Source: Octopus vulgaris
Lineage: Eukaryota
Length of the DNA stretch: 64,000 nt
NCBI GenBank assembly: GCA_951406725.2
Contig: OX597814.1
Location: 203,112,001 to 203,176,000, forward strand
Reading direction: 5' to 3'
The stretch's first letter is position 1, and the number at the start of each line of letters is the position of its first letter. Made by a program: the position numbers and the translations under genes. Below the pieces are notes generated by a model. It saw only the letters and a program-made list of their open reading frames with translations. It did not search any database and was not told where the DNA came from. Below are positions 26,864 to 63,172 of the stretch, one piece after another.

Positions 26864-26910
26864 CTGTTACTCTGGAGTTTCACCTGTGTATTCATGAGTT
26901 CATCAGACAA
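26864..26910 (-). ncRNA. Minimal type I hammerhead ribozyme motif
   Basis: Minus strand: TTGT CTGATGA ACTCATG-AATA-CACAGGT GAAA CTC-CA-GAG TA ACAG. Intact core, GUA site, stem II with 5 of 7 pairs. Confidence 0.75.
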
Positions 26911-27036: not shown

Positions 27037-27263
27037 AAATTAATAAAATACATACATACATTATTAGATATGTACATATATACACAAGGGTACTACATGA
27101 GTACCTATATCGCTAATGATAGAAGTGAAAAAATACTTCTGTACCACCGAATGGTCACAGAAGTATTTTTTTCACTTTTATCGTTAGCGATATAGGTACT
27201 CATGTAGTACCCTTGTGTATATATGTACATATCTAATATTGTATGTATATATTTTATTAATTT
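27037..27263. repeat. Near-perfect palindrome (~110-bp arms, 5-nt loop) between (TA)n tracts
   Basis: Arms 27037-27146 and 27152-27263 are reverse complements with a few mismatches. Confidence 0.93.
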
Positions 27264-32410: not shown

Positions 32411-32793
32411 CTTTATTCATCAAGTTACAACAAAAGCATCCTGTTGCAGAGTCTGAAGCGACTTTTCTGCCAGTTCTTTGATCCCATGTTGATGCCAGTT
32501 CTTAGTCTTTGAGGTTAAGAACTCCTTCACTGAAGCTTCCACCGCCACTTGTTCCAATGCATGGCTCACTTTCTGTACTTCAATGAAGAGGAGGTGGAAG
32601 CTTCAATGAAGGAATTCTTTGTCTCGAAGGACCAGAACTGGCATCAGCATGGGATCAAAGACTGTCAGAAAGGTGACTTCAGACCATGCAACATGATGGC
32701 CTCTACTTTGAGTGTTAGGATGGGTTTGCTGTAACTTGATGAATAAAACAAATGAGTTACTAAACTGTTGCAAAACATTTGACTCAACACAAT
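32411..32793. mobile_element. Fold-back mariner derivative built from two inverted transposase 3' ends
   Basis: Right arm encodes AHFL..EEVEASMKEFFVSKDQNWHQHGIK (mariner C-terminus); 32411-32545 is its diverged reverse complement. Confidence 0.8.
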
Positions 32794-38805: not shown

Positions 38806-38851
<46 letters not shown>

Positions 38852-39028
38852 GGGCTTAGTAAAATAAATTACTTTGCCACATACTGAACTTAGTAGAAAT
38901 AGCAGCCAAAAAAAATTTTCTTAGCATTTCTACTACTTAAAGAAAATTTCTCTCAGATAATGTTTACTCTAGACAGCTCACGAAGGTTTGGGGGTAAATA
39001 CAGAAAAATATCACAAGTACATAGATCG

Positions 39029-39091
39029 TTTGAGTACGTCAACGTTTCAAGATTAGCCAAATAAAATCAGCATTTCTTTCGTCAGCTCAAA
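39029..39091 (-). ncRNA. Type I hammerhead ribozyme motif (left arm)
   Basis: Exact reverse complement of 39450-39512. Confidence 0.8.
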
Positions 39092-39449
39092 ATTTCTTAA
39101 TTTGGATTTGGAAACACTAAAAAGAAGGAACTTTACCTATCAGCGAACTTGTCGCTTCAGATGAACCACTGAATTCACTTTAAATGGTCCTTTTACATAC
39201 TGAACACTTGGTGAAATTGATTAATTAATTAATTTTACCCTCAATTGTTGATATTATAATTCATTTCTCGCGGTTAAAATATAATGTTTGCTAGATAGAC
39301 CACATGGGTGGAATGGGGAGTGCAGAATTTTACGCCTACGCATTTTGAATTTGTTGACACTGTTAGTTGGAGTGGTTCATCTGAAGCGACAAGTTCGCTG
39401 ATAGGTAAAGTTCCTTCTTTTTAGTGTTTCCAAATCCAAATTAAGAAAT

Positions 39450-39512
39450 TTTGAGCTGACGAAAGAAATGCTGATTTTATTTGGCTAATCTTGAAACGTT
39501 GACGTACTCAAA
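39450..39512 (+). ncRNA. Type I hammerhead ribozyme motif (right arm, sense to the host gene)
   Basis: TTTGAG CTGACGA AAGA...TCTT GAAA CGT-TG-ACG TA CTCAAA: 6-bp stem I, intact core, GUA cleavage triplet. Confidence 0.82.
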
Positions 39513-39717
39513 CGATCTATGTACTTGTGATATTTTTCTGTATTTACCCCCAAACCTTCGTGAGCTGTCTAGAGTAAACATTATCTGAGAGAAATTTTCT
39601 TTAAGTAGTAGAAATGCTAAGAAAATTTTTTTGGCTGCTATTTCTACTAAGTTCAGTATGTGGCAAAGTAATTTATTTTACTAAGCCCTAATTATATAAT
39701 GTAATATTTTGAATTCG

Positions 39718-44552: not shown

Positions 44553-44856
44553 TTGGAGTGGTTGGTGTTAGGAAGGGCATCCAGCTGTAGAAACTCTGCC
44601 AGATCAGATTGGAGCCTGGTGCAGCCATCTGGCTCACCAGTCCCCAGTCACACCATCCAACCCATGCCAGCATGGAAAGAAGACATTAAACGATGATGAG
44701 GATATAGTGTAGGTATCAGTTAGAGGTGTTTAATCCCTCTAAGGGATAAGTAAATCCAAAGTCACTCCTGGTTATTACCTGGGTAGATATAGTCTTTTGT
44801 AAAGTTGTACAGTAGCAGATGGTTCAGTTGGTAGACCATAGTTTAGGTTATATAGA

Positions 44857-45284
44857 AGAAGAAAATGAATGTAATAACAAGGGGAAACTCATGGTTTTCG
44901 CTGGTATGCCTTTAATTTAATTAGATAACAAATAAGGAAGAAGCAATGATGAAGGTAGCATTTACGATTGTTTCGATTTACTAGTTTTAGTAAATCTCTT
45001 CAGAATGCAAAAAATAGATTGATACATTGGTTAGGGTGTGAAAATAATTGATACATATGTGATGGTAATAGAAGCAAAGGTAGTAAGTCTTACATTAAAT
45101 TTTGTTCTTGCACTGGTAATTTCACTGGAGATAGGTTTCATTGTAATAGATTAGTTAGTTTCGTTGGGCAATTAGAGCGGGGTGAATATTATTTTGGTGT
45201 GGGGTTCATTCTTCTTTGTTATCTAATTAAAGCATACCAGTGAAAACGACGAGTTTCCCCTTGTGATTACATCCATTTTCTTCT
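44857..45284. mobile_element. Fold-back element with ~70-bp diverged inverted arms and a hammerhead in the spacer
   Basis: 44857-44932 versus 45215-45284 are reverse-complementary; (TA)n on the right flank. Confidence 0.8.
44958..45008 (-). ncRNA. Minimal type I hammerhead ribozyme motif
   Basis: Minus strand: GCATT CTGAAGA GATTTACTA-AAAC-TAGTAAATC GAAA C-AATC-G TA AATGC. Perfect 5-bp stem I, 9-bp stem II, GUA site. Confidence 0.88.
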
Positions 45285-45310
45285 CATATATATATATATA
45301 TACATATATA

Positions 45311-46881: not shown

Positions 46882-47071
46882 TACCTCTGGATATCCTGTT
46901 GCTTATTTTGGTGTGTCTGTATATATATATATACATATAGTTAATTCGAGGAAGTCATCTCCTCATTAGGTATTATATAATCCAAGATATTCCACTGGTT
47001 TAATCCCTATCATATAATGCAAAAGACATTTTGGTGTATGTTCAGGATTATTGAAATTATCAATATTGGAG

Positions 47072-47392
47072 GGAAAACAAGAAGAAAATGGAGAAGAAAT
47101 GGACATAGGTAATAATTTATTTGTATGTTACAAAAAGATGACACTTTTTTAAAAAAAACATAACAGTACATATAAATTGACTGACAGGTTGAAAGCTCAA
47201 AAAATAAATTAAGATAAAATATCTATTTTTATTTTTTATTTTTTATTCTAATTTATTTTTTGAGCTTTCAACCTGTCATTCAATTTATATGTACTGTTAT
47301 GTTCTTTAAAAAAAATCCGTCATCTTTTTGTAACATAAATATAAATTATTACTTACATCCATTTCTTCTCTATTTTCTTCTTCTTGTTTTCC
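47072..47392. repeat. Diverged AT-rich palindrome (~140-bp arms)
   Basis: 47072-47211 versus 47249-47392 are reverse-complementary. Confidence 0.88.
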
Positions 47393-47404
47393 ACCCAGTA
47401 TATT

Positions 47405-59729: not shown

Positions 59730-60776
59730 TGCTGCTTTCTTATAATAATAACCTCTGTAGAAGAAAAGCAAGTTGATCTTGTTCAAATTAGAACTCAGGA
59801 AGATGCAAGAATGGCTGTGTGGTTAATAAGGTTGCTTTGCAACCATTTGGTTTTGGATTCAATCCCACTGCATAGCATCTTGGGAAAATGTCTTCTATTA
59901 TATTGCCAGTCCAACCAATGTCTGAATGTTTTGTTTTGTTTTTTTCTCTTATATGTGTCTACAGGTCTACAGGCACTAGAGATATCAAATTTTAAAATGT
60001 GGCCAAAGTTGTTGGAATGGTGGGATGGATTTGTTTGTTGGTTTGTTTCCACCAAATCAGCTACTAAGCACCAAAACTTTGGTGTGTTGATTCCTAGAGA
60101 AGCAAGACTTTCAAAATATGGTGACTGATACTAGGTATTTGTCTAATTGCATGTGTCTGGACAGCTTCCAATCAATTCACATTCTGGATAAATCTCATGT
60201 CACAAACATATTTTACTGATGCTCTAATTATTCTCCTAATCCACCATACTATTGATTTTTTTTTTTATATTGACAAAAATTAAGAAATCTGCTGGACAGA
60301 GTGTATTTGGTTGAATCAACCCCAGCATCTAACCATTACTTAATACAAAACAAAAGCCAAATTGGTGCTTGTTGAACATTTTGGTCCAATACTCCTCCAT
60401 GTCCAATTCAGTTAATTGTTTTTCATTATGTTCTGTACAAGAGAATATTTACATCTTGTCCGAAAGTGTCTGATGAACAATCAAGATATATATTGATGAA
60501 TTAAAGAAGTTTGTGGTATGGTGGAGAAAACTCCCATTCATCAGATCCCCAGTTTGCAGATAGGGGAATGGCCTGTAGATATATAGGTTAGCTGTGAATT
60601 CACAATAAGCAGTCCTGGACAAAATCAAGGGTTACCCTTTGGCAAGGCATAGCATCCGTTACCCACCTTGGTCACAGTGAAATCCTGGGGCACTGAAATG
60701 AGTGGAAATGCTTCTATCATTAGAAAGAAGGATGGTAGTAGATAATGGAACGCAAAACATAAAATAAAATATTTTG

Positions 60777-61156
60777 TGTAGTAAAGATTGTTTGCCAACA
60801 TAACATGGTAGTAATGGTTTAGGATGAATGTTGCTGTAATTTAGCCCCTGGAGACATTGTCTCCAGCTGGCTGTACGACACAATCTGTGTCCTTATATTT
60901 TTGAACAAGGGAATCTAGCACCCCACTCAGCTCAAAACAATATCTGTGTATCATGATTTCTGGGTTATTTCCCTTCATCAGCACAGAATAATTGTTTTGA
61001 GCTGAGTGGGGGTGCTAGATTCCCTTGTTCAAAAATATAAGGACACAGATTGTGTCGTACAGCCAGCTGGAGAAGATGTCTCCTGGGGCTAAATTACAGC
61101 AACATTCATCCTAAACCATTACTACCATGTTATGTTGGCAAACAATCTTTACTACA
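60777..61156. mobile_element. Fold-back element: ~165-bp near-identical inverted arms with a hammerhead as the loop
   Basis: Arms 60777-60941 and 60991-61156. Confidence 0.9.
60944..60986 (-). ncRNA. Minimal type I hammerhead ribozyme motif with palindromic stem III
   Basis: Minus strand: CTGTG CTGATGA A-GGG-AAATAA-CCC-A GAAA TCATGA TA CACAG. Stem III ATCATGAT is self-complementary; AUA site. Confidence 0.8.
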
Positions 61157-61892
61157 AAGTACTGTTGCCGAATATCTCTCTTTGTGAGATTTAAAAATAG
61201 TAATTTTCTAAAATATTTTGTCTTTGGATCTCTTCCCACTTTGCAAATCAAATTACACTTTTATGAATCTTGGTCTGGGAAACCCATCAGATTGACTGGC
61301 ACTGCAATCAACTATAGCATCTGTAACAAGAAATTAGCAACCGAAAGACATTTTTCCAAGCAAACTCGACGAGATGATGTTGATGAAAGAAGTTTCATGG
61401 TTAATTTCTTTCTGACTGGTCCAGCAACCATGCAGTGGCTCAATTCAGTCTAATGTTCATAATCTTAGCTTATGACATTTATCTTTTACCTTCTCCTTGT
61501 TTTCAGTAATTAGACTGTTGCCATACTAGGGCAGTGCCTTGAAGAATTTTTAGATGACCAAATCAACCCAAGTACTCATTTTTTTTAAACCTGGCACTTA
61601 TTCTATTGGTCTCTTTTGCTGAACTGTTAAGTTATAGGGATGTAAATACACCAACACCAACTGGCAGGTGGTGGGTAAGGGACAAATACAGACACAAAAA
61701 CACACACACACAGCACATGTATATATATATATATATATATATAACTGTAAGATCCAAGGATCAAGGTACAGGAAGAAAGTGAGCTTTAAGCAATCTGTAG
61801 AAAATATTTTAAAAAACCCACCTTTCAGGAACTATAATGGTTTATGGTTTATTGGTGCAGAAGGTTGTGAATTTTTCCTGTATCGAAGTATG

Positions 61893-61945
<53 letters not shown>

Positions 61946-62005
61946 ACCATGATAGATCATTAGCCACTACACACATTTTTTTCTCTCCTTGTTTTTTCTG
62001 TGTCC

Positions 62006-62041
62006 CTTTCTGTAGAAGAGCGTAGGCTCGAAACGTAAAAG
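62006..62041 (+). ncRNA. Variant minimal hammerhead motif in a ~190-bp element (61942-62133) between (TA)n tracts
   Basis: CTTT CTGTAGA A GAGC-GTAG-GCTC GAAA CG TA AAAG; loopless ACGT stem III; core has T in place of the conserved A6. Confidence 0.6.
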
Positions 62042-62132
62042 ACTTTTTCTATTCCTGAGCGTTATACTAATACATCTGTTTGTTTTGTACACCACCTGTC
62101 TTCGTCTTTTGTTTTTTTCGTAAACTCTCCCA

Positions 62133-62207
<75 letters not shown>

Positions 62208-63172
62208 CACACATACATATATAGATATATACACATACATATATATATATATATAGATATGATGGGCTTCTTTCAATTTCCACCTACCAAATCCACTCTG
62301 AAGGTTTTGATCAGCCTGGGGCCATAGAAGACACCAGCACAATGTGTCACACCATTGGACTGAAACTGGAACCGTGTGGTTGGGGAAGTAGACTTCTTGC
62401 CACATAGTCATGCCGGAACCTATTTAGTTCACAGAAATCAAATTTATGTACATTTCTCTTAGTTTAAAAATAAAATCTATATTTGCAAAAATTTCACCTA
62501 TATGTGTATCTATGTGTGTGTGTGCACTTGTGTGTTTCTGAATGTGTCCATATACATCTGTATTAGGAAAGATTTTAGTTCTGTCAACTTACTCTTCAAG
62601 TTATTTCTACATTTTGTATTGGTAGGAGTGATTTCTTTCTGCTTTTATTTTTTGAATTAGTCTCTCTTATCTCCACCACCACCACCACCCCAACTCCCTT
62701 TCTGTGCAATCTTTAACAATATTATTGCAATTTATATTTTCCATACTGTTCCTATCTTGAAATATTTTAAGCAACACTCTGTTATTTACCCCCCAATGTA
62801 ATTTGCATACATTACTATAACAGATATAGCGACCATTTCACACACGAAAGTGAAACAATAACCACACCTGGATTACTTTACATTTCAGATTTGGTGTGAG
62901 GAAGAAGTCGGGGAGAGGCAGGGAAAAAAATCCCACTTAATGACCTAGGCTTCAGTAAAACAATTGATTTGAATTAACTACAGAACGCACCTAATTTAGA
63001 TTCATAACATTTGAATGGTGAATTAACTTAGACTTGATTTTCTTTGTGTACACTGGAACTGTAGGTACCATATTGGTGATGGCAGTAGGATTATGTGACC
63101 TCAAGGAACTCTGCTTGGTGTCTAAAGACACCCCAATCACACTAACATGAAATCTGTAAAATCCAAATTAAC

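Follow-up and report, generated by a model that had tools for sequence, protein, structure and literature searches.

A hammerhead motif at the joint of a 431-bp inverted insertion in Octopus vulgaris, probably a non-autonomous Penelope-like element

An insertion of 431 bp (60778-61208), in which two inverted arms meet at a hammerhead motif, was identified in the window, i.e., the whole 64-kb stretch of DNA that was analyzed. With a probability of about 0.6, it is regarded as a non-autonomous Penelope-like (or retrozyme-derived) element formed by inverted cDNAs joined via helix I of the hammerhead. The copy itself is probably a decayed passenger and not a working RNA gene. The coincidence of the joint with helix I is new; the component parts are all known from the biology of Penelope-like elements (PLEs) and retrozymes.

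Structure of the Insertion

The inverted repeat consists of arms of 164 nt (60778-60941) and 165 nt (60991-61155) separated by a spacer of 49 nt (60942-60990). The arms differ from each other by three substitutions (60849, 60858, and 60859) and one 1-nt gap (60920). Near-identical arms of about 165 bp around a spacer of about 49 nt had been described in the initial annotation, and this description was confirmed, as was the prolongation of stem I by the arms, helix I passing into them via a 3x1 internal loop.

A 13-bp direct repeat (target-site duplication, TSD) was found on either side of the structure, at 60765-60777 and 61209-61221. An anchored match as long as this was obtained at 8 of 3000 random positions (fraction 0.0027). 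Since the direct repeat flanks the structure, the insert amounts to 431 bp, including 53 nt on the right that have no partner on the left. The following features were assigned:

60765..60777, no strand: left TSD copy, 13 bp, AT-rich, with a 10-bp palindrome inside (random-position test)
60778..60941, minus: left arm, downstream of the hammerhead, presumed 3' end pointing left, no tail
60943..60948, minus: 3' strand of helix I, beginning at the predicted cleavage site 60949/60948
60949..60981, minus: hammerhead core with CUGAUGA, extra A, helix II (3 bp, 6-nt loop, purine-purine mismatch at its base), GAAA, palindromic helix III, and UA
60982..60990, minus: 5' strand of helix I and the 3-nt side of the 3x1 internal loop
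60991..61155, plus: right arm, inverted copy of the downstream sequence, presumed 3' end pointing right
61156..61208, plus: one-sided extension of 53 nt, tail-like; other copies carry the family beyond 61211
61209..61221, no strand: right TSD copy, 13 bp, the first 3 nt of which also match the family sequence

Six-frame translation revealed no long reading frame in the insert, and the RT and GIY-YIG ORF of an autonomous Penelope-like element was absent. Three features had been overlooked previously, namely the TSD, the extension on one side, and the high copy number reported below; taken together, they identify the insert as a copy of a mobile element rather than a locus-specific RNA gene.

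Two observations concern the target. The duplicated sequence contains a perfect 10-bp AT palindrome at 60766-60775, which would be an appropriate substrate for double-strand cutting by a dimeric endonuclease. The insertion is also nested in an older low-copy repeat, with raised depth at 60526-60667 and 61210-61310, and paralogous contigs join 60661-60667 to 61210-61249, the flanks of the 431-bp insertion.

Identification of the Hammerhead Motif

Within the spacer, a minus-strand type I hammerhead motif of 45 nt was recognized at 60987-60943. Its elements are, in order, helix I (UCUGUG/CACAGA), CUGAUGA, an extra A, GGG-AAAUAA-CCC, A, GAAA, UCAUGA, and UA, and cleavage is predicted between 60949 and 60948. 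All type I core boxes (CUGANGA, GAAA, and UH) were present in the right order. A minimal hammerhead of 43 nt had been proposed to fill the spacer; the motif as such was upheld, with its length corrected to 45 nt and the term minimal replaced by a canonical-like geometry.

Helix I, with 6 bp and pair probabilities of 0.84-1.0, closes the motif at the predicted cleavage site. Helix II comprises three G-C pairs (P ≈ 0.97) and one unpaired purine per side next to the GAAA box, where two other copies show G. Helix III is short, with 2 bp and a palindromic tetraloop; pairing in the monomer was close to zero, and the 8-nt palindrome is able to form a dimer duplex of -7.2 kcal/mol.

The motif grammar was matched by 3 of 3,000,000 shuffles of the 33-nt core on either strand, and four strict hammerhead motifs were counted in the 64-kb window versus a mean of 0.01 in 100 shuffles. 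A search of the whole window against Rfam yielded zero matches at gathering level, and no hammerhead family was among the 26 matches up to E = 10 in the region 60000-62500; the hammerhead call therefore rests on motif grammar. As for a microRNA precursor, the best Rfam score was 55.8 bits against a cut-off of 100, with generic miRNA-hairpin matches only.

The motif is closer to the canonical animal type I geometry than to the minimal PLE form, and its extra nucleotide after position 9 is typical of PLE hammerheads. According to PMC4209133, hammerheads in pLTRs carry this extra nucleotide together with a palindromic helix III, and PLE hammerheads occur as opposite-strand pairs 100-700 bp apart. 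The present motif resembles the min-HHR of that source in its type I topology, the extra nucleotide after position 9, and the palindromic helix III, which implies cleavage as a dimer. It differs in helix I (6 bp plus an internal loop, compared with 4-5 bp), in helix II (only 3 bp and a mismatch, compared with 7-8 bp), and in the presence of helix III. A mismatched base of helix II is already known from the axolotl retrozyme Amex2 (PMC7229834; bioRxiv 10.64898/2026.07.22.740005).

At position 60954, in helix III of the hammerhead core, the majority letter of the family differs from the copy at 60778-61208. Together with the letters of two other copies, this points to a formerly CpG-rich palindrome in helix III that has decayed in the present copy.

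Folding and RNA Evidence

In the nearest-neighbor model, helix I was 99% formed with just its 6 bp, the probability of helix III was close to zero, and the core mispaired with helix III. The active fold was predicted to lie 7.0-7.2 kcal/mol above the ensemble whatever the length of the arms (additive model with no tertiary contacts), with the active fold of the monomer at about 1e-5. The expectation that the long stem stabilizes the ribozyme was not borne out: the gap of about 7 kcal/mol between active fold and ensemble stayed much the same when the arms were included. The energy model gives no support for such stabilization, but the ribozyme may still be active.

The full hairpin was predicted to be very stable, with an ensemble energy of -314 kcal/mol. 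For the plus strand of the DNA, fold-back on helix I gave values from -7.2 to -18.4 kcal/mol.

RNA evidence was obtained at the family level from about 6% of one raw run with another species label, and no site was observed at which many molecules begin or end. The proposal of a long dsRNA with defined ends was accordingly not sustained, this being a weak test. Both strands were about equally covered, and only 30 of 4321 family reads were at least 99% like the copy at 60778-61208. In 254 RNA reads, loose ends were found behind 61211, and the family thus continues past this position in other copies.

A functional host gene, whose self-nicking hairpin RNA would give rise to dsRNA or small RNAs, would be compatible with the predicted stability of the hairpin and with the occurrence of the family sequence in RNA reads of both strands. 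This reading is very improbable, given the lack of a pile-up of RNA ends in the run, the small share of closely matching reads, the low modeled occupancy of the active monomer fold, and the departure of helix III from the family majority.

Abundance and Junctions

Among the public runs, 20 of 24 listed rows contained the stretch or part of it, and four runs were examined: three contig sets with different species labels and the one raw RNA run; X19 and X20, with shares of 0.06 and 0.04, were left out. Summed contig depth was 43-67 in the single-copy flank and reached 140,000 to 1,030,000 between 60778 and about 61210, loop included. The ratio of loop to flank depth was 3,278, 6,362, and 3,951 in the three DNA runs (3/3), summed depth not being a copy number. 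At 60778, the depth jumped from below 1,000 to above 200,000. As the step falls at the TSD boundaries, the unit is a very abundant repeat.

Single-copy contigs carried the left junction in X1 and X2 (60450-60801), and the right junction was found in a single-copy contig of X9 (61188-61622) that showed 25 differences in 434. Because both junctions occur in single-copy contigs, the insertion is real; an assembly artefact was ruled out by these contigs, the TSD, and the non-identical arms. None of the listed contig records covers the whole element, and no empty orthologous site was encountered. The insertion is probably older than the split from the X9 lineage.

In all four runs, pooled depth climbed from the loop toward the outer arms. 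Such a gradient is expected from outward-pointing 3' ends combined with 5' truncation and would fit the Penelope-like reading. Both inner arms together had 1.8-2.6 times the depth of the loop, which fits a family dominated by hairpins and also a smooth truncation gradient.

Within the 64-kb window, no second copy was detected by blastn or with a motif taken from the continuation of the family. A 22-nt stretch of the arms gave 0 matches against the metagenome contigs.

Joints in Other Copies

The account of other copies is based on 15 of 234 joints, 40 of 427 variant rows, and 24 of about 59,600 pieces. Eleven arm-to-arm joints were found among those listed; they start at varying distances from the cleavage site, and two of them lie within the ribozyme. 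A diverged single-copy contig of X1 (record 6, 60964-61105), with 17 other letters and 5 gaps, leads from helix II across helix I and on into the right arm for over 110 nt. The same joint is therefore present at one other locus at least. Record 5 of X1 continues 18 nt beyond helix I. Record 4 departs from the element 9 nt past helix I and then shows 63 unlike letters, which may be the true upstream sequence of the parent. In X9, a joint deleting half of the ribozyme occurred at about six times single-copy depth, and because of this depth, hairpin derivatives may be able to multiply.

These records bear on the possibility that the hairpin arose once and spread as a fixed unit by means of PLE proteins into thousands of copies, its arms being kept alike by conversion. 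It would agree with the shared joint in record 6, the course of record 5, the multiplied half-ribozyme joint in X9, and a loop depth similar to that of each inner arm in all four runs; the ratios of 1.8-2.6 fit a fixed hairpin master and recurrent events alike. It is opposed by the exit of record 4 shortly after helix I, by the many other joints, and by an outer-arm depth several times that of the loop, and a smooth truncation gradient accounts for the depth equally well. On balance, a single fixed origin is possible but rather unlikely.

MITEs and foldback elements are non-coding, high-copy repeats with long inverted repeats. Assignment of the insertion to such a DNA transposon, with the hammerhead present by chance, would agree with these properties and with the TSD. 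The right inverted repeat, however, is not terminal, as 53 nt lie between the right arm and the TSD; the family runs past 61211, the joints vary, and variable ends are suggested, with the ribozyme in a central position. Such an assignment is hardly credible.

History of the Arms

At five paired positions (60809/61124, 60813/61120, 60814/61119, 60873/61060, and 60902/61031), both arms share a letter that differs from the family majority; further shared minority letters were listed on one side at 60882 and 61108. At several of the shared sites, the majority letter accounted for 96-99% of the depth. As the arms have rare variants in common, one arm is a copy of the other, made at the time of insertion or later.

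The arms differ at 4 of 164 positions versus about 9.5 expected at the 5.8% divergence of the flank from X9 (Poisson P ≈ 0.04, calculated by hand), a deficit also compatible with a fixed master whose arms are kept alike. On these sequence data, the evidence leans to conversion after insertion. The shared variants by themselves leave the copying undated, and later conversion fits them at least as well.

One further observation concerns the outer arms. At 60805-60835 and 61098-61128, the majority letters would give a small stem with an AC-rich loop near the left end, which is lost in both arms of the present copy. It recalls the AC-rich stem-loop at which a PLE starts reverse transcription (PMC11167929).

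Other Hairpins and Hammerhead Motifs

The window is AT-rich DNA of animal type with many microsatellites, and long hairpins are common in it. A ribozyme at the apex was found in one of the six inverted pairs examined. Two ordinary head-to-head pairs, at 38841-39693 and 44849-45292, carry hammerhead motifs away from the joint. The younger of these (38841-39712), located in a (TA)n tract, has arms of 329 nt that are 99.7% alike, a 200-nt spacer, a short one-sided tail, and one hammerhead motif per arm (39085 minus and 39456 plus), and corresponds to a textbook Penelope-type mini insertion. The older pair (44849-45292, 83%) lies beside (TA)n and has a minus-strand hammerhead motif at 45003 in its spacer, with a helix II of 9 bp.

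Three hairpins of more than 100 bp with short loops are free of a hammerhead. A near-perfect 110-bp hairpin with a 5-nt loop lies between microsatellites at 27037-27263; beyond a microsatellite, a weak hammerhead-like motif occurs at 26906 (minus), which may have no connection with the hairpin. The hairpin at 47063-47401 is AT-rich, with 160 bp, a 15-nt loop, and 84% identity by blastn, and neither a hammerhead nor a TSD was found there. The third, at 32437-32698, is a decayed 114-bp hairpin with a 35-nt loop, which may represent the 3' end of a mariner-type transposase gene folded on itself.

These hammerhead-free hairpins argue against a need for the ribozyme, as they imply that fold-back requires none in this region. 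They would also agree with an incidental origin, in which a replication template switch or repair folded an ordinary PLE or retrozyme copy at its strongest short palindrome with no role in retrotransposition, helix I being an obvious local palindrome. Nevertheless, both arms and the tail lie within the TSD, the right arm extends 53 nt beyond any template offered by the left arm and does so in family sequence, and the joint recurs in one or more other diverged copies. An incidental fold is therefore considered improbable.

A minimal hammerhead-like motif was also noted on the plus strand at 62006-62041; its first box is a variant one (CUGUAGA), its helices measure 4 bp, and it contains a CG palindrome. 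It is located in a common repeat beside (TA)n, and its fold alone was not significant (z 0.81).

A scan of contigs with the hammerhead grammar returned at least 124 loci (4 viral and at least 120 metagenome), most of them chance matches that provide a weak background. Among the 124 loci listed, none was homologous to the present motif and none had helix I drawn out into a long hairpin (best extension 20 versus 317); at 19 of the 124, the search for any inverted repeat gave one 24-nt pair only. Seven metagenome loci (L007, L013, L038, L048, L056, L070, and L078) form a type I motif family with a 4-bp helix II and a 6-nt helix III insert. These motifs are mostly palindromic and belong to the same architecture class as the motif at 60987-60943, with no inverted arms.

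Origin of the Joint

The initial annotation held that the inversion was generated at the ribozyme. This view is supported by the coincidence of the joint with helix I, which fits priming or annealing at that place. The preferred Penelope-type route would begin with a reverse transcriptase/endonuclease acting in trans, which would nick the two strands 13 bp apart. cDNA would then be primed from both target ends, one start lying 53 nt farther out than the other. The left cDNA would pass through the ribozyme and its helix I, and the right cDNA would end near the 3' strand of helix I, i.e., at the end of a self-cleaved RNA. The two cDNAs would subsequently anneal via distal helix I, the natural 3x1 internal loop being kept, and the arms may later have been partly homogenized by conversion.

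A close alternative is that a single cDNA snapped back on helix I, leading to a nearly identical product; the DNA fold-back values given above make this feasible. Priming at two ends followed by annealing is favored over simple snap-back because it explains the one-sided extension and because a cDNA made from a self-cleaved RNA would stop exactly at the 3' strand of helix I.

The Penelope-like reading is supported by the TSD, the one-sided extension of 53 nt, the high copy number, the fold-back of the plus-strand DNA on helix I, and the two head-to-head pairs with hammerheads in the same window; the depth gradient and the variable joints would fit it as well. Against it, no autonomous partner was found among the ORFs of the insert or in 18 of the 68 long ORFs of the window. 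No relative was seen in the window or in the scanned contigs. In the same 18 of 68 ORFs, Pfam revealed no PLE domain and one sub-threshold DUF match.

Comparison with Known Elements

Several of the components have been described. In Penelope-like elements, an inverted 5'-truncated copy is accompanied by a tail of 30-40 bp at one end, and the role of the hammerhead is stated to be unclear (PMC8557442). Palindromes at head-to-head junctions and a TSD of 8-10 bp have been described, and self-priming has been proposed (PMC3846280). A PLE protein nicks AT-rich DNA and extends both strands, starting at two sites that define the tail, with hammerhead cleavage not needed in vitro (PMC11167929).

The insertion shares with endonuclease-positive PLEs with an inverted pLTR the head-to-head segments, the palindrome at the joint, the tail at one end, the TSD, the AT-rich target, and a hammerhead in the terminal repeat (PMC3846280; PMC8557442). 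Unlike these elements as described there, it has no ORF, its joint is helix I, and it bears one ribozyme at the apex. Its tail of 53 nt (longer in other copies) compared with 30-40 nt and its TSD of 13 bp compared with 8-10 bp exceed the ranges in these sources, which counts against the Penelope-like reading.

Animal non-LTR retrozymes have been proposed to be non-autonomous PLE derivatives and, like the insertion, are short, AT-rich, non-coding repeats with a type I hammerhead of canonical size (PMC7229834; bioRxiv 10.64898/2026.07.22.740005). In contrast to the retrozymes described in these texts, the locus contains a single unit without tandem arrangement, in the form of an inverted, TSD-flanked insertion.

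The accessible parts of PMC6431247 and PMC6962438 contained nothing further on a hammerhead-at-joint layout. In the open literature, at the level of titles and the first lines of abstracts, no long genomic hairpin tipped by a hammerhead was encountered; supplements of PLE papers may show this layout.

Implications

In the rare variants common to both arms, concerted evolution of short genomic hairpins becomes measurable.

The significance of the joint itself depends on its distribution. If joints were not enriched at helix I, the insertion would be an ordinary decayed repeat copy whose joint had fallen on a local palindrome. If independent insertions were joined at helix I more often than elsewhere, a structural role of the ribozyme in building the inverted repeat would follow.

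A further reading, conceivable but doubtful, is that helix I is a programmed joint at which the PLE machinery connects its two inverted cDNAs, one of them made from self-cleaved RNA and thus provided with a run-off end that would pair with the other, and that the genome holds thousands of ribozyme-tipped, self-nicking hairpins of 170 bp, representing an undescribed type of element. If true, it would account for the retention of a hammerhead that these elements can do without in vitro.
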